A model generated the notes under the pieces. The model ran no database searches, was not told where the DNA came from, and saw nothing but the letters and a program-made list of their open reading frames with translations. A stretch of DNA of 32,000 nt from Bacteroidota bacterium. Its GTDB lineage: Bacteria; Bacteroidota; Bacteroidia; Bacteroidales; P3. Within the stretch, counting starts at the first letter, position 1, and the number at the start of each line of letters is the position of its first letter. Shown in pieces: positions 4,752-22,601 of the stretch. The stretch lies in assembly GCA_017860275.1 (NCBI GenBank), contig JAFNAQ010000002.1:25089-57088 (forward strand), written 5' to 3'. The position numbers and the translations under genes were made by a program.

Positions 4752-6182
4752 ATGAGTATAAAGCATAAAACAATTTATGGATTATTTTGGAGTAGTATAG
4801 AACGTTTCTCCTCACAGATAATTCAATTTGTAATTGGAATAATAATTGCACGCCTATTAGCACCAACAGACTATGGGCTAATAGGTATGCTTGCAATTTT
4901 CCTTGCTATATCTCAATCATTTATCGATAGTGGTTTCTCAAATGCACTAATCATTAAAAAAAACAGAACAGAGGCAGACTTTTCTACAGTATTTTATTTT
5001 AATATATTTGTAGGACTATTCTTCTATATAGTATTATTTTTCACCTCTGGCTTAATAGCCGATTTTTATAATTCCCCAATATTAGAGAACCTCACAAAGG
5101 TAGTAGGGATAACATTGTTTATTAACTCCCTAACCGTTGTTCAAAGGGCAAAGCTAACAATAGTTGTAGACTTCAAGACTCAAGCAAAGGCATCAATCAT
5201 TTCAGTAATAATATCTGGAATTATTGGAATATGGATGGCGTACTCCGGCTATGGAGTATGGGCATTGGCATATCAATCTGTTGCAAATGGCTTAGTAAAT
5301 ATGATAATGATTTGGGCATATTCAAAATGGAAACCTAAAAGAATATTCTCATGGACATCATTTAGGGAACTTTTCTCCTTTGGCTCAAAACTTTTATTAT
5401 CAGGGCTTATAGATACAATTTATAAAAATATTTATACTATAGTAATTGGGAAAAAGTTTTCTGCACATGATTTAGGATTTTATACACGTTCCGACCAATT
5501 GGCACAATTCCCCTCATCCAATATTTCAAATATATTCTCAAGAGTTATATTCCCAATCCTAAGCAGTATACAAACAGACGATGACCGCTTGCAAGATGTT
5601 TACAGAAAATACCTAAGACTTTCAGCCTTTATTATCTTTCCATTAATGGCAGGATTTGCAGCATTAGCCTCTCCATTTATTAATCTTCTACTAACACCCA
5701 AATGGGATGGAGCAGTTTTGATTCTTCAAATACTTTGTTTTGCCTATATGTGGTATCCAATACATTCCATCAATCTCAATCTTCTTCAAGTAAAAGGACG
5801 TTCCGATCTGTTTCTTCGATTAGAAATAATAAAAAAAATCATAGGTTTCACAATACTATTAATCACAATTCCAATGGGAATAATTCCAATGTGTATAGGG
5901 TTAGTAATCAACTCAATTATTTGTTTAACAATAAATACTCATTACACTGGAAAACTTATTAATGTTGGATTTGTTAAACAAATGAAAGACCTCTTACCAA
6001 CACTATTCTACTCCACAACGATGAGCGTTATAGTATGGTTAAGTATAATGTTGGTAGATAGTAATTTATTAAAATTATTACTAGGATTTGTGATAGGTAC
6101 AGTATACTATTTTGGAATAGCATATATATCAAAATCTAAAGAGATACACGAGATTCTTTCAATAATTAAACCTAAGAAATAG
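4752..6182 (+). CDS. wzx: Polysaccharide/O-unit flippase (MOP superfamily, Wzx-like)
   Basis: 476 aa with about 12-14 TM helices. Its N-terminus is typical of polysaccharide biosynthesis (PST) proteins and it sits in a sugar-nucleotide operon. Confidence 0.75.
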   Translation: MSIKHKTIYGLFWSSIERFSSQIIQFVIGIIIARLLAPTDYGLIGMLAIFLAISQSFIDSGFSNALIIKKNRTEADFSTVFYFNIFVGLFFYIVLFFTSGLIADFYNSPILENLTKVVGITLFINSLTVVQRAKLTIVVDFKTQAKASIISVIISGIIGIWMAYSGYGVWALAYQSVANGLVNMIMIWAYSKWKPKRIFSWTSFRELFSFGSKLLLSGLIDTIYKNIYTIVIGKKFSAHDLGFYTRSDQLAQFPSSNISNIFSRVIFPILSSIQTDDDRLQDVYRKYLRLSAFIIFPLMAGFAALASPFINLLLTPKWDGAVLILQILCFAYMWYPIHSINLNLLQVKGRSDLFLRLEIIKKIIGFTILLITIPMGIIPMCIGLVINSIICLTINTHYTGKLINVGFVKQMKDLLPTLFYSTTMSVIVWLSIMLVDSNLLKLLLGFVIGTVYYFGIAYISKSKEIHEILSIIKPKK

Positions 6183-9385: not shown

Positions 9386-10765
9386 ATGGAAACCTCATTG
9401 TTTGCAATTCCAAAATCAGAAGGATTAAATGTAGAATTCAAATCCTCGTTCAATATTTCTGTAATAGAAACATTGGTTGCTTTTGCAAATAGTAAAGGAG
9501 GGAAAGTATATATAGGAATAAAAGACGACTTAAAAGCAAAAGGAGTCATTATATCTCAAGAAAGTGTACAAAATTGGATAAATGAAATAAAGTCTAAAAC
9601 AGAACCGTCATTAATCCCAGATGTTGAAATACTAGAAAAAGAAGATAAGAAAATAGTTGTATTAAGTGTTTCTGAATATCCAATAAAACCAATTTCTCTA
9701 CAAAATAGGTTTTATAAAAGAATAGGGAACTCAAACCATTTGATGAATGTTAGCGAGATTGCAGATGAACATCTAAAAACATTAAACACAAGCTGGGATT
9801 ATTACATAGACCCAAATCATAAAATTGAAAGCATATCCCTAACAAAAATAGAAAACTTCATTAATAAGATAGAAAAGAAAAATGGTATAGAGATAAAACT
9901 ATCACCAATTGACTTTCTTAAAAAACTAGAATTAATTCGAGAAGAAAAATTGACATTTGGAGCTTATTTAATGTTTTGTGAAGATAATAATCTGATAACA
10001 GATATTCAAATAGGACGATTCAAAAGTGAAATAACAATAATAGACAACTTATCCATATCAACAGATATATTTTCAGAGGTAGATGAATTGATTTCTTTTA
10101 TCAAAAAACATCTGATGATAGAATATATAATAACTGGAAACCCTCAAAGAACAGAGAGATTTGACTATCCATTAGAAGCAATAAGAGAAATAGTAATTAA
10201 CATGATAGTCCATAGAGATTATAGAAGTACATCATCATCAATAATAAAAATTTATGACGATAGAATAGAATTTTATAATCCAGGTAAAATATACGGAGAT
10301 ATAAATATTAGTGATATAATTTCAGGGAATTATATATCACAAACAAGAAATAAACTAATAGCAAAATGCTTTAAGGAAGTAGGGTTAATAGAAAAATATG
10401 GATCAGGAATAAAAAGAGTAATAGAACTCTGCAGAGATCATGGAATAAAAGACCCAGTTTTTGAAGAACAATCAAATGGATTTGTAGTAAAACTATACAA
10501 AAATATAATATCAGAAAAGAGTACGGAAAAGAGTACGGAAAAGAGTACGGAAAAGAGTACGGAAAAGAGTACGGAAAAGAGTACGGAAAAGATCTTGGAA
10601 TTAATAAAAGCAAACCCTAAGATAACAACAATAGAATTAATGCAAGAGACAGGACTATCTCAAAAGGGAATAGAAAAAAATATTTCAAAACTAAAAGAAG
10701 AAAACCAAATCAAAAGAGAAGGTGGAAGGAAAACAGGACATTGGAAGCTAAAAGCTAAAAACTAA
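9386..10765 (+). CDS. AlbA_2 (Schlafen-like) + HATPase_c_4 + C-terminal wHTH protein, the family often mis-annotated as 'RecG-like' or 'transcriptional regulator'
   Basis: N-terminal EGLNVEFKSSF...LVAFANSKGGKVYIGIKDD is the AlbA_2 signature and REIVINMIVHRDY...IEFYNPG is HATPase_c_4-like. The C-terminal ILELIKANPKITTIELMQETGLSQKGIEKNISKLK looks like a wHTH. Confidence 0.7.
   Translation: METSLFAIPKSEGLNVEFKSSFNISVIETLVAFANSKGGKVYIGIKDDLKAKGVIISQESVQNWINEIKSKTEPSLIPDVEILEKEDKKIVVLSVSEYPIKPISLQNRFYKRIGNSNHLMNVSEIADEHLKTLNTSWDYYIDPNHKIESISLTKIENFINKIEKKNGIEIKLSPIDFLKKLELIREEKLTFGAYLMFCEDNNLITDIQIGRFKSEITIIDNLSISTDIFSEVDELISFIKKHLMIEYIITGNPQRTERFDYPLEAIREIVINMIVHRDYRSTSSSIIKIYDDRIEFYNPGKIYGDINISDIISGNYISQTRNKLIAKCFKEVGLIEKYGSGIKRVIELCRDHGIKDPVFEEQSNGFVVKLYKNIISEKSTEKSTEKSTEKSTEKSTEKSTEKILELIKANPKITTIELMQETGLSQKGIEKNISKLKEENQIKREGGRKTGHWKLKAKN
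10514..10592 (+). repeat. 12-bp tandem repeat x6.5, in frame (EKST)n
   Basis: gaaaagagtacg occurs six times without a mismatch (10514-10585), plus a partial seventh unit. It encodes EKSTEKSTEKST... between the HATPase-like and wHTH regions. Confidence 0.95.
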
Positions 10766-10774
10766 AAGTGAAAA

Positions 10775-10968
10775 ACGGTATCGCCAAACTTTTCACTATT
10801 AACTATTAACTTTTCACTTAATATGGCATCGCCCAAACTTTTAACTTTTAACTTTTAACTATTCACTACCCTGCTTTTACCTTTTTACTTGCTTTTCACT
10901 GCTTTTCACTCATCACTCTTAACTTTTCACTTAATACGGTCTTGATTTTTGCAACTTTGTATCAAGAC
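10775..10968. repeat. Full-length mosaic intergenic repeat (left copy), inverted relative to copies at 27723-27823 and 28891-29027
   Basis: 10852-10946 is the exact reverse complement of 28914-29008 (95/95 by hand alignment). 10775-10874 matches the reverse complement of 27723-27823 with 3 differences. The copy contains GGCGAT(G/A)CC cores and the hairpin gtcttgat-N14-atcaagac (10939-10968). Confidence 0.9.
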
Positions 10969-11043: not shown

Positions 11044-12309
11044 ATGGATATAAAGATAGCAGTGATCGGTTTAGGTTATGTAGGCCTACCGCTTGCAAGG
11101 TTGTTCTCAACCAAATACTCAACCATAGGTTACGACATAAATAAAGCAAGAGTAGAGCGCCTAATGCAAGGCGTAGACGAAACCTTAGAAGTAGAAGACT
11201 CATTGCTTCAAGAAGCAATAGAAAAGCATAACTTTATCTGCACAACCAATCTTGATGCAATAAAAGAATGTAACTTCTTTGTAGTAACAGTTCCAACTCC
11301 AGTCGATAAACATAATAACCCAGACCTAACACCACTATACAAGGCATCCGAAACAGTAGGAAAGGTAATCAAAAAGGGAGATATAGTAGTGTATGAATCT
11401 ACCGTTTATCCAGGAGTAACAGAAGAAGAATGCTTGCCAGTAGTAGAAAGAATCTCAGGATTGAAATACAACCAAGACTTTTTCGCAGGCTACTCACCAG
11501 AAAGAATAAACCCAGGCGACAAAGAACACACAGTAGAAAAAATCCGCAAAGTAACTTCAGGCTCAACACCTGAAATAGCTACGATAGTAGACGATGTATA
11601 TAACTCAGTACTAATAAACGGAACACATCTAGCATCATCAATCCGAGTAGCAGAAGCATCGAAGATAATAGAAAACTCACAAAGAGACGTAAACATAGCC
11701 TTTATGAACGAGTTAGCAAAGATATTCAACGCAATGGGTATAGACACTAACGACGTAATAGAAGCAGCAGCATCGAAATGGAACTTCATTAAGCTAAAAC
11801 CAGGCTTAGTAGGAGGACACTGCATAAGCGTAGACCCATACTATCTAATCCAAAAAGCACAGATATATGGAGTCCTTCCAAGAATAATGTCCGATGCAAG
11901 ACGCCTCAACGACAATATGGGAGAATACGTAGCAAACCGTGTAATAAAACTAATGAACAAAAAAGGAGTAGTTGTAAAAGATGCAAATATCCTAATCTTA
12001 GGAATAACATTCAAAGAAAACTGCCCAGACATACGCAACACAAAGATAGTAGATATACACTCAACCCTAAGCGAGTACACAAGCAATATCACAATCTTCG
12101 ACCCATGGGCAAACAAAGAAGAAGTAAAACACGAATATAACGTAGAAATTACCAACATCCTACCAAAAGAAAGATTTGATGCTATTATTCTTGCAGTAGC
12201 ACACAATGAATTCTTAGAATTAAACCTAACAACTTTAAGAAAAGATAATAGTGTATTGTATGATGTAAAGAACATCTTACCAAAAGAAATGGTAGACGGA
12301 AGATTGTAA
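11044..12309 (+). CDS. Nucleotide-sugar dehydrogenase, TviB/WbpO/Cap5O-type (UDP-N-acetylhexosamine 6-dehydrogenase-like)
   Basis: 421 aa with the N-terminal Rossmann motif IAVIGLGYVGLPLA and the catalytic region GGHCISVDPYYL typical of this subfamily. Confidence 0.85.
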   Translation: MDIKIAVIGLGYVGLPLARLFSTKYSTIGYDINKARVERLMQGVDETLEVEDSLLQEAIEKHNFICTTNLDAIKECNFFVVTVPTPVDKHNNPDLTPLYKASETVGKVIKKGDIVVYESTVYPGVTEEECLPVVERISGLKYNQDFFAGYSPERINPGDKEHTVEKIRKVTSGSTPEIATIVDDVYNSVLINGTHLASSIRVAEASKIIENSQRDVNIAFMNELAKIFNAMGIDTNDVIEAAASKWNFIKLKPGLVGGHCISVDPYYLIQKAQIYGVLPRIMSDARRLNDNMGEYVANRVIKLMNKKGVVVKDANILILGITFKENCPDIRNTKIVDIHSTLSEYTSNITIFDPWANKEEVKHEYNVEITNILPKERFDAIILAVAHNEFLELNLTTLRKDNSVLYDVKNILPKEMVDGRL

Positions 12310-12347
12310 TTTAAAATTTATAATTTACAATTTAAAAGTTGAAGAAA

Positions 12348-12470
12348 ATCTTAGCCGTAGCCCATAACGAGTTCCTAGAACTAGACCTACGCTCAATGCT
12401 AAAATGTAGTGGAGTACTATACGACGTAAAAAACATCTTACCAAAAGAAATGGTTGATGGAAGATTGTAA
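12348..12470 (+). pseudogene. 3'-terminal remnant of a divergent dehydrogenase allele (40 codons + stop)
   Basis: Translates ILAVAHNEFLELDLRSMLKCSGVLYDVKNILPKEMVDGRL*. It differs from the intact gene end at 23 of 40 codons, 15 of them synonymous. Confidence 0.9.
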
Positions 12471-12508
12471 TTAAAAATTTATAATTTACAATTTAAAAGT
12501 TGAAGAAA

Positions 12509-12631
12509 ATCCTAGCCGTAGCCCATAACGAGTTTCTAGAACTAGACCTTCGCTCAATGCTAAAAGAAAACGGAGTATTATATGATGTAAAAAACATCTT
12601 ACCAAAAGAAATGGTTGACGGAAGATTGTAA
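12509..12631 (+). pseudogene. Second 3'-terminal dehydrogenase remnant
   Basis: Translates ILAVAHNEFLELDLRSMLKENGVLYDVKNILPKEMVDGRL* and is close to the first remnant. Confidence 0.9.
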
Positions 12632-12668
12632 TTTAAAATTTAAAACTTACAATTTAAAAGTTGAAGAA

Positions 12669-12686
12669 GGCGGAAGATTGGAATTT
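12669..12686 (+). pseudogene. Micro-remnant of the dehydrogenase stop region
   Basis: ggcggaagattggaattt matches gacggaagattgtaattt, with the stop mutated. It is flanked by the same spacer words. Confidence 0.5.
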
Positions 12687-12721
12687 AAACTTTTAAACTT
12701 AAAATTTAAAAGTTGAAGAAA

Positions 12722-12862
12722 ATTCTAGCAGTAGCACATAATGAATTAAAATCTTTAAACCTTAAAGAACATCAAAAACAATTATCAGTATTGTATGATG
12801 TAAAATCAGTAACGCTAAAGGAATTAATTGTCGAAATACATAAAACTAAATACTATAAATAA
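12722..12862 (+). pseudogene. Fourth, strongly divergent dehydrogenase 3' remnant
   Basis: Translates ILAVAHNELKSLNLKEHQKQLSVLYDVKSVTLKELIVEIHKTKYYK*. Its stop overlaps the ATG of the next ORF (TAATG). Confidence 0.8.
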
Positions 12863-13551
12863 TGAAGTTTGACGAATATAATATTAAAGCAAGAATTTTA
12901 CCTTCAATTATAATTTTGATACCTATATTGCTTTTTTTTAATAATTGCAAAATTGATAATATTCAAGTTGTTTTTAATAATCTATTAAGTGTAAAAATAA
13001 TTGGAAATGTTACTCTGTCTATTGCTCTACTATTTTTATTAGTGCAAGTTAATAGATATATTGGTAAGTATATTTTTGAAAAGAGAATGTATAAAAAAGA
13101 GCTGGACATGCCTACAACAATTTTTTTATTATATAGTAATTCCGAATTTTCTAAGGAATATAAAAACCGATTGAGAAAACAAATAGAAAATGATTTTTTT
13201 ATCATTTTACCAGATGAACAATTAGAAAATACAAACTTATTAGAAACAAAAAAAAGAATAATAGAAGCTGTTGGATTAATAAGACATAAAGTAAAAAATG
13301 GAAGGCTACTTTTACAGCATAATATCGAGTATGGTTTTTTTAGAAATTTTATAGGCGGTTCTATAATAGGTTTATTAATTTCTGCATTTAATATTTTTTA
13401 TTTTTACATTATCAATGACAAGTTAATATTTGGCATCAATATTGGATTATCTAGTCTATTTGCTTTACTTTTTATATTTCATCGTCCAATAATTATTAAT
13501 TTAGGTAATCAATATGCAAAAAGATTATTTCAAGAGTACTTAGCAAAATAA
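12862..13551 (+). CDS. Hypothetical 4-TM membrane protein with a ~100-aa charged central domain
   Basis: 229 aa with two N-terminal and two C-terminal hydrophobic helices. I recognise no family. The start is coupled to the preceding remnant. Confidence 0.6.
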   Translation: MKFDEYNIKARILPSIIILIPILLFFNNCKIDNIQVVFNNLLSVKIIGNVTLSIALLFLLVQVNRYIGKYIFEKRMYKKELDMPTTIFLLYSNSEFSKEYKNRLRKQIENDFFIILPDEQLENTNLLETKKRIIEAVGLIRHKVKNGRLLLQHNIEYGFFRNFIGGSIIGLLISAFNIFYFYIINDKLIFGINIGLSSLFALLFIFHRPIIINLGNQYAKRLFQEYLAK

Positions 13552-13567
13552 TTAAACATAAGTAATA

Positions 13568-14512
13568 ATGATTAAAATACATTTTATAAATGTTGGACAT
13601 GGAGACTGCATTGTAATTGAGTTTTGTGATAAATCTAGAATAGCAGTTGTAGATATAAATATGTCAAAAGAGATGGATAATGATTCGCAAAGTGAAGTAT
13701 TAAATGAATTAAATTCTTATGATAAGAATCATTATCAATCCCTCAATTTTTCAAATAGTCAAATATTTGAAAAAGCGGGTTATAATATCAATCTAACCAA
13801 CCCAATTGATTACATTAAGCAATTGACTAATGGTTCCATATTTAGATTTATTTCAACTCATCCACACCTAGACCATTTATCGGGATTAAGTGAATTAAAA
13901 TCGAGAGTTGGAATATTAAATTATTGGGTTGTTAATAATAAATTATTAGTAAATAGTTCCAATTTAAGCAATAGTCAAAATGAAGATTGGACTTTATATA
14001 AGAAGCTTAGAGATACGACAGAGCGAATACAAGATGGAATTACTATTGTAAAACCAAAGGAAGGTTCTAAAAATCAATATTGGATTGAAGATAATATTAC
14101 AATTTTATCACCAAATAATAAATTAGTAAAATTGGCTGAAGAAACGAATAGGCCGAATATAATGAGCTACGTGTTATTAATTAATTATGCTGGTCATAAA
14201 ATAATTTTAGGAGGTGATGCAGAAGATGAAACTTGGGAATATATATATAAAAATCATTCAGATTTAATAAAAGATGTTACTATTTTAAAAGCATCTCATC
14301 ATGGTAGAAACAGTGGGTATTATCAATCTGCAATTGAACTTATGAAACCTAAATACACGATTGTTTCAGTAGGAAAAAAGCCAGATACTGATGCTTCTAA
14401 CAAATATAGAAATTATTGTGAAAATGTATTGTCAACAAGGTGGATGGGAAATATTGTATTTGAAATTCATTCAAAAGGAGAGATAAAGTATTATTGTGAA
14501 CATAATCGTTAG
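13568..14512 (+). CDS. Stand-alone metallo-beta-lactamase-fold hydrolase, ComEC/Rec2 C-terminal-domain type (predicted nuclease)
   Basis: 314 aa with NVGHGD near the N-terminus, THPHLDH (HxHxDH), GGDAED and KASHHGR. This is the motif set of ComEC-like MBL domains. Confidence 0.75.
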   Translation: MIKIHFINVGHGDCIVIEFCDKSRIAVVDINMSKEMDNDSQSEVLNELNSYDKNHYQSLNFSNSQIFEKAGYNINLTNPIDYIKQLTNGSIFRFISTHPHLDHLSGLSELKSRVGILNYWVVNNKLLVNSSNLSNSQNEDWTLYKKLRDTTERIQDGITIVKPKEGSKNQYWIEDNITILSPNNKLVKLAEETNRPNIMSYVLLINYAGHKIILGGDAEDETWEYIYKNHSDLIKDVTILKASHHGRNSGYYQSAIELMKPKYTIVSVGKKPDTDASNKYRNYCENVLSTRWMGNIVFEIHSKGEIKYYCEHNR

Positions 14513-14808: not shown

Positions 14809-16050
14809 ATGTCTATTCGAAAAAAACTCTCATATAATCTTTTAATTCAGGCAATAGGTCCTATTCTATCTTTTCTTACTATTTTTTTAATTGCAAGGAT
14901 TGGTGGACCCAAAACACAAGGTTATTATGCTAGTATATCTGCATGGATTAATTTTGCTGTAGTTGTTGGGATATTTGGGTTTCCCCAAAGCTTCATCTAT
15001 TTAATCAATAAGATGAATACCTCTCCTAAAATTTTGATTAAGGGGTCATATTTTTATTCTATTTTATTTTTATTACTATTTATACCTGTTATTTTTGTAT
15101 TAATAAGTAATAATCTTATTAATAGTATTGTAATTAGTACTAATATTCAAGTTTTTATTTTAGGTGTACCAATAGCAATACTAATCCTTCATGGTTTATT
15201 AAGAGGAATATATTTAACTTATAATCAAAGTATTTTATTTGCTATTTTTTCAATTTTGCCAGCTTGTATTCTTTTCTTATTTGTGTTTATTGGTTTGATT
15301 TTTAAATATCTTAATTTTCAATTGATATACCTCATTTCATCTATTCCATTATTAGTCATTATTATTTTAATGATGAGACCTCTGGTGAATGATAATAAAA
15401 ATAATGATTATATTAAAAAAATATCTTGGAAAATATTATTTAATCATGGAATAAATACATTTTTACAGGCTTTGTTTTTAGCATCACAACCGATAATAGC
15501 GTATTGGATAATCAATAAATATATTGGGGGAACTATTGAAATTGGTTATTTTAATTTAGGATTATTTTTAGTACAAGGATTATTAGTTCCAATAAGTATG
15601 ATTGCACCATTACTATTTGAACATTGGACAAAAAATAGTAATTATAGATCAATAGTAAAAATAAATAAATTCAAATTTTTTATTTTAGAGTTCATTTTGG
15701 GTTGTTTATTAGCCCTCTCTTTACAATATATAATTCCAATAATTTTTGGATTTGAGTACATAAAATCAATAAGAGTTGCTCAAATTCTAATAATAGCTAC
15801 TCCAATAATTTTTCATACTAGAATACTAATACCAGCAATTCATTCTAAAGGTCATCCTATTATTAATACTTATACTGGCTTCTTAAGATTAATTCTATTC
15901 GTTATTATATCTTATACATGGTTGAAATTAGTTGATCATGGATTAACTGGTTTAGCAATAGCTTGGTCATTGTCTGAGCTTATTGTTGCTGTAATATCAA
16001 TTATTTTATTTAATAAATTATTTAAAGATGAATATTTATATATTACTTAA
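14809..16050 (+). CDS. wzx: Second oligosaccharide flippase (Wzx-like, MOP superfamily)
   Basis: 413 aa with about 12 TM helices, very AT-rich, and followed by acetyltransferase and polymerase genes. Confidence 0.65.
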
Positions 16051-18069: not shown

Positions 18070-18342
18070 ATGACCGACAAAGAAAAAATTGAAAAATTAG
18101 TCTCTATGGAAGTAGAGGATAAGATTAATGATCATTCTGCTGTTACTGTTAATATTTCTATCAGAGAGATTATGGCGGCTAAAGGTTTTTCAGAAGATAG
18201 GATTGAAGAGTTTATTCAAATATTTCAAGAGGAGATAGCAAGACTAATTGTTACAGATAGGGAAAAGTTTGACGATTTTATTAGGGAACTTAGTGGTATG
18301 GATAAAGATTGTAGGGTAGATATTGTTAAGGATGATTGCTAA
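18070..18342 (+). CDS. Hypothetical small acidic protein (90 aa)
   Basis: The ORF has G/T-skewed codon usage like the neighbouring real genes and is helical and acidic. I recognise no family. Confidence 0.45.
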   Translation: MTDKEKIEKLVSMEVEDKINDHSAVTVNISIREIMAAKGFSEDRIEEFIQIFQEEIARLIVTDREKFDDFIRELSGMDKDCRVDIVKDDC

Positions 18343-18802: not shown

Positions 18803-19219
18803 ATGGCAATTAAATACTTTAGACTCAAGAGAAAAATTACAACCAATAGTATTCCAGAGGATAAATACATTGCTGTTATTCAACAAGAAGCTAGAGTTGG
18901 GTTTGAAGAACTTGCGGAAATGATTGAAAAGAAAAGCACCTTGAGTAGGGGAGATATCTTAGGAGTATTTGCTGAAATGGAGACAACGGCTCTTTGGATG
19001 TTGGAAAATGGTCACCCATTAATTTTGAGGCTTTTTGGTTCATATTTTCCTGCAATTGAAGCAACGGCGGTCGATACTCCAGAGGAAGTGACGGTCAAAA
19101 CTATCAAGAGATTTAAATGTATTTATAAGCCTTCGGTTTATATGAAGAAAAGGTTTAAAAAAGTTGAATTTGTGTTAGGAGATAATAGAGTTAGGGAGGT
19201 GCATTATAAAAAAGATTGA
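18803..19219 (+). CDS. Bacteroidetes HU-like (histone-like) DNA-binding protein, long form
   Basis: 138 aa. It shares KY(I/L)A...F(E/K)...MIEK(K)ST(L/V)SRGD(I/T)L...E(M/-)TA...GH...PEEVT..TI with the next ORF, which resembles the HU-fold 'putative DNA-binding protein' family common in Bacteroidales. Confidence 0.65.
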   Translation: MAIKYFRLKRKITTNSIPEDKYIAVIQQEARVGFEELAEMIEKKSTLSRGDILGVFAEMETTALWMLENGHPLILRLFGSYFPAIEATAVDTPEEVTVKTIKRFKCIYKPSVYMKKRFKKVEFVLGDNRVREVHYKKD

Positions 19220-19286: not shown

Positions 19287-19694
19287 ATGAAATTTAGAAA
19301 AGTTAAAAAGAATATCCATGTTGGCTATTCTCCTGGTGAAAAGTATTTAGCTCAACCTGTTAAAGGCGAAACAATCGACTTTAAGGCTATGGCTGCAATG
19401 ATTGAGAAATCAACCACTGTTAGTAGAGGGGACACCCTCAATGTGCTTGATGCAATGGCTACTGCTGCAGTAACCATGATAAAAGCAGGTCATAACGTAA
19501 AATTCGATGGTCTTGGAATCTTTGATCTAAAGACTAAGGTTAAGGCAATGAATACCCCAGAGGAGGTAACTGCTGATACCATCGAAAGAATTACAATTGG
19601 ATTTATTCCAACTGTAGAGTTAAAAGACCAAATGAAGTCTGTTTCTATAAGTATTGACCCATACGAAACAGAACCAACACCTCCAACTCCGTAA
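19287..19694 (+). CDS. HU-like DNA-binding protein, tandem paralogue with a Pro/Thr-rich tail
   Basis: 135 aa and clearly a paralogue of 18803-19219. The C-terminus is ETEPTPPTP. Confidence 0.65.
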   Translation: MKFRKVKKNIHVGYSPGEKYLAQPVKGETIDFKAMAAMIEKSTTVSRGDTLNVLDAMATAAVTMIKAGHNVKFDGLGIFDLKTKVKAMNTPEEVTADTIERITIGFIPTVELKDQMKSVSISIDPYETEPTPPTP

Positions 19695-19818
19695 TTCTTT
19701 TTGAGAGTTAAAAGCTAAAAACTAAAAGTGAAAAGCTTATAGTTGCGAGGTGAAAACCTAAAGACTAAAGTTAAAAGTCTAAGTTGAGAAATCAACAAGT
19801 AAGAAATCAAATAATACT

Positions 19819-21290: not shown

Positions 21291-22601
21291 ATGAATATAG
21301 CAATTGTAGGTACAGGATATGTTGGATTAGTTTCTGGAACTTGTTTTGCAGAAATGGGAATCAATGTTACATGTGTAGATATTGATGAGGATAAGATTTC
21401 AAAACTTAAATTAGGATATATGCCTATTTTTGAGCCAGGCTTAGACGATATGGTTGTAAGGAACCATAAAGCTGGACGACTTAATTTTACAACTAATTTG
21501 ACTTCAGTATTGGATGATGTTGATGTTGTATTTAGTGCTGTTGGAACTCCACCCGACGAGGATGGTAGTGCTGATTTGCGATATGTTTTGGATGTAGCAA
21601 GAACTGTTGGAAAGAATATGAATAAGTATTTGGTATTCGTAACTAAAAGTACTGTGCCAGTTGGAACTGCAATAAAGGTTAAGGCTGCAATTCAAAAAGA
21701 GTTGGATAAACGAGGTTTAGATATTGAATTTGATGTTGCAAGTAATCCTGAATTTTTAAAAGAAGGGGCGGCAGTTCAAGACTTTTTACGACCAGACAGG
21801 GTTGTTGTAGGCGTTGAAACTGAAAGAGCTAAAGAAATACTAACAAGACTTTATAAGCCTTTTATGTTACAGAATAACCTAATGATATTTACAGATATTC
21901 CTTCTGCTGAAATGATTAAATATGCAGCAAATTCCATGTTAGCTACTCGTATTTCTTTTATGAATGATATTGCGAATCTTTGCGAACTTGTTGGTGCAGA
22001 CGTTAATATGGTTAGAAAAGGAATTGGTTCCGATACCAGAATTGGACAGAAATTCCTATATCCAGGTTGTGGATATGGTGGTTCTTGTTTCCCGAAGGAT
22101 GTAAAAGCATTAATTAAAACTGCACAGCATAATGGTTATGAAATGGAGGTGTTGCAAGCAGTTGAAAGAGTAAACGATAAACAAAAATCAATCCTTTTCA
22201 ATAAATTACATAAACACTTTCAAGGTGTATTAAAAGGAAAAACCATATCAATTTGGGGTCTTAGTTTTAAGCCTGAAACAGATGATATGAGAGAAGCACC
22301 TTCATTGGTATTAATTGATTTACTTCTTCAAGCAGGTTGCAAAGTAAAAGTCTATGATCCAATCTCAATGGAAGAATGCAAAAGAAAAATTGGAGATAAA
22401 GTAATTTATTCCAAGGATATGTATGAAGCAACAGTAGATTCAGATGCTTTAATGTTAGTTACAGAATGGAAAGAATTCCGAGTACCAAGCTGGGATGTAT
22501 TAAAGAAATCAATGAATAACTATTTTGTATTTGATGGAAGGAATATATATGATTCTAAGGAATTAATTGAAAAAGGATTTGTTTATTATAAGATTGGATA
22601 A
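21291..22601 (+). CDS. ugd: UDP-glucose 6-dehydrogenase
   Basis: 436 aa with the N-terminal IAIVGTGYVGLVSG motif and the catalytic GYGGSCFPKD motif. Confidence 0.92.
   Translation: MNIAIVGTGYVGLVSGTCFAEMGINVTCVDIDEDKISKLKLGYMPIFEPGLDDMVVRNHKAGRLNFTTNLTSVLDDVDVVFSAVGTPPDEDGSADLRYVLDVARTVGKNMNKYLVFVTKSTVPVGTAIKVKAAIQKELDKRGLDIEFDVASNPEFLKEGAAVQDFLRPDRVVVGVETERAKEILTRLYKPFMLQNNLMIFTDIPSAEMIKYAANSMLATRISFMNDIANLCELVGADVNMVRKGIGSDTRIGQKFLYPGCGYGGSCFPKDVKALIKTAQHNGYEMEVLQAVERVNDKQKSILFNKLHKHFQGVLKGKTISIWGLSFKPETDDMREAPSLVLIDLLLQAGCKVKVYDPISMEECKRKIGDKVIYSKDMYEATVDSDALMLVTEWKEFRVPSWDVLKKSMNNYFVFDGRNIYDSKELIEKGFVYYKIG

Follow-up and report, generated by a model that had tools for sequence, protein, structure and literature searches.

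A 32,000-nucleotide stretch of Bacteroidota bacterium DNA (contig JAFNAQ010000002.1, positions 25,089 to 57,088; the whole of it is called the window here) carries, between two polysaccharide gene cassettes, a compact pair of genes encoding a 229-residue membrane protein and a 314-residue protein of the metallo-β-lactamase (MBL) fold. This pair probably constitutes a mobile two-gene defence module in which, by analogy with better-characterized systems, the membrane protein would anchor or regulate a cytoplasmic DNase, a reading to which we assign a confidence slightly on the favourable side of even. Defence is the best supported and most likely of the functions considered, and a role in polysaccharide synthesis is unlikely. 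The evidence carrying this reading consists of the integrity of both genes, the ComEC-type fold and catalytic motifs of the MBL protein, the linkage of the two genes across phyla, the exchange of the membrane partner for other membrane proteins in related operons, and links to the 6A-MBL system and to PNP-domain proteins. The family of the 229-residue protein is unannotated, and the name TM229 was coined for it here. Both open reading frames (ORFs) are intact and separated by a 16-nt spacer, the coordinates given in an earlier note on this DNA agreeing with the ORF list (Table 1).

The MBL protein and its membrane partner

The 314-residue protein contains each element of the ComEC/Rec2 motif set that the earlier note had attributed to it, with VGHGD at position 9, HPHLDH at 98, GGD at 215 and SHHG at 243, all of them at columns that are invariant in an alignment of 27 family sequences. 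Its AlphaFold model (pLDDT 88.9) retrieves the ComEC MBL domain 9ic4 as its top Foldseek match in the PDB (E 5.7e-16, target-normalised TM-score 0.75), bearing out the description of a ComEC-type MBL, and a profile of the family compared with PDB sequences likewise places 9ic4 (3e-12) and full-length ComEC (2e-9) ahead of Pce, the pneumococcal esterase acting on teichoic-acid phosphorylcholine. Family models register these resemblances below their thresholds: Pfam PF00753 (Lactamase_B) scores 22.3 bits against a gathering threshold of 22.7, although several family members carry a precomputed match to PF00753 or PF12706 and the fold and motifs themselves are unambiguous, and the NCBIfam model ComEC_Rec2 (TIGR00361), in a match confined to its C-terminal part, gives 32 bits where the cutoff is 190. 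Relative to ComEC, motifs I and II are separated by an insertion of ~33 residues. No signal peptide is present, the N-terminus entering the first β-strand directly. Homologues number more than 650; the best 120 are 49-63% identical to the window protein, almost all of these being stand-alone proteins of ~315 residues, and come from Bacteroidota, Cloacimonadota, Fidelibacterota, Desulfobulbaceae and one archaeon.

The MBL domain of ComEC is a metal-dependent DNase acting at the membrane during DNA uptake (Silale et al. 2021, as cited in PMC12799240), and defence-associated ComEC-like MBLs such as HamM and those of the Avs1a type are latent DNases that a partner activates (PMC12799240, PMC12642450, bioRxiv 10.1101/2025.09.03.673762). 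By analogy with ComEC and with these assayed defence enzymes, the 314-residue protein is predicted to be a metal-dependent DNase. ComEC/Rec2 is its best match both in structure and by sequence profile, the HxHxDH, GD and SHHG motifs are common to both, and in ComEC, too, the nuclease domain works with a membrane-embedded component. Unlike ComEC, however, the window MBL is a stand-alone protein devoid of the OB-fold and competence channel domains, and it is predicted to be cytoplasmic, whereas the MBL domain of ComEC is extracytoplasmic.

The partner protein had been described as two pairs of hydrophobic helices around a charged domain of ~100 residues, belonging to no recognisable family, and both parts of this description hold. 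Hydropathy places the helices at residues ~12-31, 44-64, 163-186 and 190-212, and the segment of ~100 residues between the two pairs contains 19 K+R and 13 D+E. Since 25 K+R are found on the N-terminus, middle domain and C-terminus together, as opposed to a single one on the two short outer loops, an N-in/C-in topology is predicted, with the helical middle domain in the cytoplasm. The AlphaFold model is all-helical (pLDDT 88.8). No Pfam, NCBIfam or PADLOC model matches the protein (in PADLOC, none at E<=10), a PHROGs search yields no more than a non-significant match (0.29), and a fold search of the PDB and BFVD finds nothing better than E 0.27, Zorya ZorA appearing among the Foldseek matches at a non-significant E of ~4.6. 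Similarity to the ComEC channel is likewise absent. A family alignment identifies invariant motifs following the second transmembrane (TM) helix (MPTT) and preceding the third (LLQHNIEYGFxRN), and an exhaustive profile search recovers 1,749 representative clusters, defined at 50% identity, at E<=1e-3, of which 300 also pass E<=1e-30. With few exceptions the members are stand-alone proteins of 220-245 residues.

Operonic linkage and relation to named systems

Linkage between the two genes was surveyed in 80 TM229-seeded loci from species-representative genomes, their arrangement assigned with profile hidden Markov models. The MBL gene precedes the TM229 gene in 34 of these loci, follows it in 16 (the order of the window), and is found on both sides of it in three; in a further 17 the order is 6A-MBL enzyme, Cap2/3 fusion and TM229, while four loci lie at a contig edge and were not judgeable, and six were scored as having no such arrangement. 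Three of these six are ORF-start artefacts with an MBL, and one has a 341-residue partner whose type Pfam recognises as MBL-fold. In the reverse direction, a TM229-family neighbour was found in 33 of the 51 judgeable MBL-seeded metagenome loci, and almost all of the loci lacking one have another small multi-pass membrane protein. The fetched loci contain 85 unique adjacent TM229/MBL pairs, and TM229-MBL intergenic gaps cluster between -4 and +16 nt. The earlier note had made its two-gene module depend upon co-occurrence in other genomes, and the genes do co-occur: TM229 and MBL genes form a conserved operonic unit across phyla, in either gene order. Taxa bearing TM229 among the 80 species-level loci include Bacteroidota, Patescibacteria, Cloacimonadota, Gammaproteobacteria, Bdellovibrionales and Chlorobium, and the distribution of the pair is patchy across phyla, Bacteroidales and Cloacimonadota copies sharing 59% identity.

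Domain fusions show the modularity of these families. On at least seven contigs (L180, 8001-12087, and also L181 and L182) a 500-residue PNP_UDP_1-TM229 fusion is followed after 1 nt by an MBL protein (285 residues) and then by an MBL-AGS_C fusion (490 residues), the cluster adjoining a serine recombinase gene, and at another locus (L023) the TM229 partner is likewise an MBL-AGS_C fusion. PNP, AGS-C, E1/E2/JAB and MBL are recurrent parts of conflict systems (bioRxiv 10.1101/2025.09.30.679545).

The earlier note was unable to match the pair to a named system, and this no longer stands. In PADLOC the window MBL matches component B of the candidate system PDC-M48 (PDLC04675, 84.4 bits, E 2e-24; PDLC04673, E 6.7e-21) and, weakly, LmuA. 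It is 52% identical to a Fidelibacter MBL whose partner, a membrane protein of 163 residues, is a true PDC-M48A (E 1.2e-61 in PADLOC, where it served as a positive control); a protein of this type precedes the MBL in Fidelibacter and in several metagenomes. The likeness to PDC-M48 further includes a two-gene operon with a small multi-pass membrane protein immediately upstream, and adjoining restriction-modification (R-M) and Abi genes. The difference lies in component A, the window partner having 229 residues and a ~100-residue cytoplasmic domain as opposed to 163 residues in PDC-M48A. An interpretation of TM229 as a longer PDC-M48A was rejected, the hhalign probability being 1% and no PDC-M48A match being obtained at E<=10. 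Judged by its sequences, the window pair is classed as a partner-swapped variant of PDC-M48, itself a computational candidate only. As TM229 matches no PADLOC model, PADLOC would not call the window locus. Yet another membrane protein, of 220 residues with four TM helices, accompanies an MBL homologue that is more distant (L161, 10996-11655), and has weak PADLOC matches to the type VI-B CRISPR-associated membrane proteins tm_4/Csx27 (4e-6, 5e-5) and to PDC-M48A (5e-4).

A second link leads to 6A-MBL, counted among known anti-phage systems in PMC13276650 and bioRxiv 10.1101/2025.09.30.679545 and so named in NCBIfam model NF058524. Its composition, taken here from NCBIfam model names and citing papers, is an MBL enzyme (NF058524) and a Cap2/3-like E2-E1-JAB protein (NF058523; Van den Berg et al. 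2024, as cited in PMC13276650). In the 17 loci of this arrangement TM229 is the gene directly after Cap2/3, with gaps of -50 to +37 nt (L010, 6505-10687; L014, L029, L030, L032, L033, L040, L062, L063, L066, L070, L071, L077, L080, L085, L088 and L089). Both the 6A-MBL enzyme and Cap2/3 exceed the NCBIfam cutoffs beside TM229 in Muricauda and on Acinetobacter plasmids, where they score 443 and 553 bits, respectively, beside a TM229 member scoring 129 bits; in 11 Acinetobacter plasmid records (e.g., NZ_CP027245, L184) a WYL gene and the gene for a 262-residue TM229 protein lie divergently beside a true 6A-MBL system. These arrangements suggest that TM229 may be an unrecognised extra component of the 6A-MBL system. 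The window MBL shares with the 6A-MBL enzyme a ComEC-like MBL fold and the same catalytic motifs, but its score against NF058524 is 26.8 bits, compared with a cutoff of 220 and 362-443 bits for true members, and the BLAST similarity is at the level of motifs only. Assignment as a 6A-MBL enzyme was rejected on this basis, and the protein was placed in a separate MBL subfamily. The window also differs in having no Cap2/3 gene. The ORFs around the pair encode a UDP-sugar dehydrogenase on one side and, on the other, a Wzx-like flippase, an acetyltransferase and a Wzy-like protein, and in none of them does Pfam find a ThiF, E2 or JAB domain.

Other defence systems invite comparison as well. Protease-activated MBL nucleases (HamM, Avs1a, trypsin-MBL) resemble the window pair in that a ComEC-like MBL effector is encoded by a separate gene beside a regulator, and one such module adjoins a TM229 cluster on a Runella plasmid described below. 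In contrast to these modules, no protease ORF lies near the window pair, and the window MBL has no match to Avs1a in PADLOC (E<=0.1) or NCBIfam (E<=1); since the regulator would here be a membrane protein, the mechanism of activation, if any, would differ. Kiwa (KwaA/KwaB), Zorya (ZorAB and a nuclease) and SNIPE each combine a membrane component with a DNA-acting effector, presumably at work at or close to the point where phage DNA enters. The analogy with the window pair is one of logic only, with no relationship in sequence or fold.

Neighbourhoods, proposed function and competing explanations

Many relatives occupy defence or mobile contexts. On at least 24 contigs (L176, 6165-15872; L177, L178) a type I R-M operon encloses the genes for an MBL homologue of 309 residues and for a 226-residue partner not detectable as TM229, in the order HsdS-HsdM-SieB-like-HsdS-(MBL-226aa)-RhuM-HsdR with an nSTAND/HD protein gene downstream. 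In Fidelibacter a type I R-M system immediately precedes the module, and AbiE and PIN modules follow it. At other loci the adjoining genes are WYL, R-M, PycTM-domain and patatin genes; relaxase, TIR, AAA, S8 protease, SNIPE and integrase genes; or a 6A-MBL remnant and a resolvase, and one copy is carried by a Rep3/ParA/ArdC element together with AbiE and another E2/E1 system. On the conjugative plasmid NC_015694.1 of Runella slithyformis (L183, 27576-44124) the TM229 cluster lies between an R-M system and an Avs1a-like module. The R-M system of this plasmid consists of dcm and MvaI/BcnI, the cluster reads MBL (366 residues)-SEC-C (214)-TM229 (236)-MBL (343), and the Avs1a-like MBL (357 residues) is accompanied by a 1363-residue serine protease and a recombinase, three MBL-based modules thus being found within 10 kb.

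When the two genes closest to the module on either flank were surveyed blind in 37 species (148 proteins), the recurrent families were CapH/CapP-like regulators (4-5 of the 37 species), methyltransferases, resolvase, integrase and extra MBLs. On the enrichment for defence genes that the earlier note had proposed to look for, the evidence is divided: individual relatives do occupy defence or mobile contexts, while the survey of flanks is mixed and uncontrolled. The association with defence is qualitatively strong, not statistically established. A phage-borne origin is unsupported, with two weak loci in IMG/VR and no matches in INPHARED.

In the proposed mechanism TM229 would reside in the inner membrane, its termini and ~100-residue helical domain facing the cytoplasm, where this domain would bind, position or restrain the cytoplasmic MBL. 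Infection or the entry of foreign DNA would perturb TM229 and release the DNase activity of the MBL, which would then cut incoming DNA or all cellular DNA, restricting the invader or aborting the infection. This model of restraint and release is proposed because of the analogy with ComEC and with latent MBL DNases activated by a partner. The two proteins would presumably interact physically, one acting as putative sensor and the other as killer, and the window pair would presumably be directed against phage.

Several observations weigh against a defence module. The substrate of the MBL is a prediction by analogy, and its second-best fold match is Pce/CbpE (E ~5e-13). TM229 gives no hint of a sensing mode. 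A mirror-tree test of the two families gave a Pearson coefficient of 0.39 (Mantel 0/999) and a Spearman coefficient of ~0, the correlation being limited to close relatives, and their co-evolution is weakly supported. The literature yielded no experiments on PDC-M48 or on any TM-MBL pair, and reports mixed results for other PDC candidates when tested. One close relative (L174) has a neutral context, and the 148 flanking proteins, surveyed with no control set, are mostly family-less or housekeeping, defence and mobile matches being a minority. Finally, in the window itself the pair points the same way as the polysaccharide genes, and it matches the right-hand cassette in GC content.

This last circumstance, together with a position between two polysaccharide cassettes, a scan that detected no terminators, and the rank of Pce/CbpE among the fold matches, would suit a Pce-like phosphodiesterase trimming a phospho-substituent (e.g., phosphocholine) from a glycan or lipid-linked precursor, in which case the pair would belong to the right-hand cassette. 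We regard such a role as very improbable. On the matter of whether the MBL groups with polysaccharide enzymes, a check named in the earlier note, ComEC ranks ahead of Pce by fold as well as by profile. The resemblance to Pce/CbpE is at the level of the fold only, and the window MBL has neither a signal peptide nor the choline-binding repeats of the secreted enzyme. The annotated neighbourhoods of close relatives include no polysaccharide locus, and the polysaccharide context of the window is not kept in relatives, in agreement with the earlier view that neither protein has an obvious role in sugar chemistry, and in the survey Glycos_transf_2 and Polysacc_deac_1 have one member each among the 148 flanking proteins (within the top 25 families listed). 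The links of the family to 6A-MBL, R-M, AbiE, PNP and AGS-C are also hard to square with glycan chemistry.

Relatives found beside relaxase, TrwB, ArdC, Rep3/ParA and recombinase genes on conjugative or mobilisable plasmids and integrative elements raise a different possibility, namely that the pair is not anti-phage and acts instead as a barrier to or processor of DNA arriving by conjugation or transformation. A membrane-docked ComEC-like nuclease would then destroy plasmid or ICE DNA on arrival, in the exclusion of or competition between elements, or would work in the service of its carrier element. The handling of DNA at the membrane by the ComEC MBL domain in the course of its import (Silale et al. 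2021, as cited in PMC12799240) and the scarcity of viral matches (two weak ones in IMG/VR, none in INPHARED) point in this direction. However, plasmid and element contexts are typical of anti-phage islands as well, and embedding in a type I R-M operon fits either explanation; a link joins TM229 to 6A-MBL, reported to be anti-phage, and the predicted cytoplasmic location of the window MBL sets it apart from the extracytoplasmic domain of ComEC. On balance a function in DNA entry is considered unlikely. Quite improbable, in our estimate, is a selfish toxin-antidote module, in which a toxic MBL nuclease restrained by the membrane protein would stabilise its carrier without helping against invaders, or an inert hitch-hiker. 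The compact operon and patchy cross-phylum spread (59% identity between Bacteroidales and Cloacimonadota) are as expected of such a module, and toxin-antitoxin systems and recombinases frequently adjoin it, but the many invariant residues in both families argue against inertness, and repeated recruitment beside genes for sensors and regulators (Cap2/3, AGS-C, CapH/CapP and WYL) better fits regulated immunity than simple addiction.

Should the pair indeed be defensive, the repertoire of defences would gain a compact system of two genes, one that detectors miss because TM229 has no PADLOC, Pfam or NCBIfam model. The defence reading predicts that small membrane proteins, besides proteases or Cap2/3, can control ComEC-like MBL nucleases; that the 6A-MBL operons of many Bacteroidota and of Acinetobacter plasmids have an unrecognised membrane component; and that junctions of polysaccharide loci in low-GC Bacteroidota-like genomes are landing sites for defence cargo. 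A generalisation that we hold to be doubtful would make TM229 a widespread, hitherto unrecognised membrane subunit through which ComEC-like nucleases respond to what happens at the inner membrane, for example the entry of phage DNA or a disturbance of the envelope. In the window it would form part of a minimal two-gene 'reverse ComEC' destroying DNA on entry, and elsewhere, Acinetobacter resistance plasmids included, it would be a third component of the ubiquitin-like 6A-MBL system. Whatever its function, a family of this size (1,749 clusters at 50% identity) merits a model of its own.

The cassette junction

Table 1. Positions of the gene pair and of features of the two cassettes and their junction in the window
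Feature	Position	Strand	Source
TM229 gene (229-residue membrane protein)	12862..13551	+	ORF list
ComEC-clade MBL gene (314 residues)	13568..14512	+	ORF list
Wzx-type flippases (two)	4752-6182 and 14809-16050	+	window
UDP-sugar dehydrogenases (two)	11044-12309 and 21291-22601	+	window
161-bp tandem array, 2.5 copies, 92% matches (junction context, outside the module)	12265-12668	+	
Divergent fourth dehydrogenase 3'-end copy (third extra copy)	12716..12861	+	tblastn, DNA alignment

The Wzx-type flippase, UDP-sugar dehydrogenase and DegT aminotransferase genes are each present in two copies (Table 1), and the window is therefore regarded as two adjacent polysaccharide cassettes, the pair and the cassette genes all lying on the plus strand. 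The left-hand cassette contains RmlA-like, RmlB-like, Wzx, DegT, WbqC and GT56-like genes (GT, glycosyltransferase), after which come a gene for a Schlafen/AlbA_2-ATPase-winged helix-turn-helix (wHTH) protein and a complete UDP-sugar dehydrogenase gene. The right-hand cassette begins with Wzx-like, hexapeptide acetyltransferase and Wzy-like genes, two HU-HIG genes and a GT1 gene, and continues with the second dehydrogenase, GT2, DegT, CapD-like, initiating transferase and ManC-like genes. The two cassettes differ in GC content, and non-sugar genes occupy their junction. The GC fraction is 0.225 for the TM229 gene and 0.276 for the MBL gene, compared with 0.325-0.374 for the left-hand block and 0.225-0.26 for the right-hand cassette. 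The pair is thus more AT-rich than the left-hand block, as the earlier note had remarked, but it shares the composition of the right-hand cassette, to which its GC content is taken as equal, and composition is therefore no mark of separate import.

Between the upstream dehydrogenase gene and the pair, at 12310-12861, tblastn and DNA alignment reveal three additional copies of that gene's 3' end. Two of them belong to the tandem array, whose unit consists of the terminal ~120 bp of the UDP-sugar dehydrogenase gene and an AT-rich (AATTTAA)n spacer. The third, divergent copy, with 56% amino acid identity to residues 384-417, abuts the TM229 gene on its upstream side and may be what remains of another dehydrogenase allele after cassette recombination. 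The dehydrogenase fragment with which the pair was earlier supposed to have been imported is therefore real, but it comprises three copies, two of them tandem duplicates, and joint import is just one possible reading. Together the copies look like the scar of repeated recombination at the cassette junction, and they are no demonstration that the pair arrived independently. An independent short-read contig (L001) begins inside the tandem-repeat region, at approximately window position 12589 by coordinate offset.

Further repeats and non-sugar genes were observed in the window. The Schlafen/AlbA_2 protein, which combines this domain with HATPase_c_4 and wHTH domains and is encoded at 9386-10765, between the left-hand cassette and the dehydrogenase gene, has weak PADLOC matches to pAgo-associated proteins. 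Its gene contains at 10502-10609 a run of consecutive, mostly perfect in-frame 12-nt units (GAAAAGAGTACG) encoding a STEK repeat, which could be variable in length. At the 3' end of the same gene (10741-10774) lies a 34-nt motif (TTGGAAGCTAAAAGCTAAAAACTAAAAGTGAAAA), a second copy of which, with 91% identity, is found at 19701-19734, just past the second HU-HIG gene, and three related copies of a roughly complementary repeat of the CTTTTCACT... type occupy 10789-10939. Repeats of the TTGGAAGCTAAAAGCTAAAAACTAAAAGTGAAAA and CTTTTCACT types may be intergenic elements marking the boundaries of cassettes or inserts. The right-hand cassette is itself interrupted by the paralogous genes for HU-HIG (PF18291) DNA-binding proteins, at 18803-19219 and 19287-19694, which together with a 90-residue ORF at 18070-18342 lie between the Wzy-like and GT1 genes.

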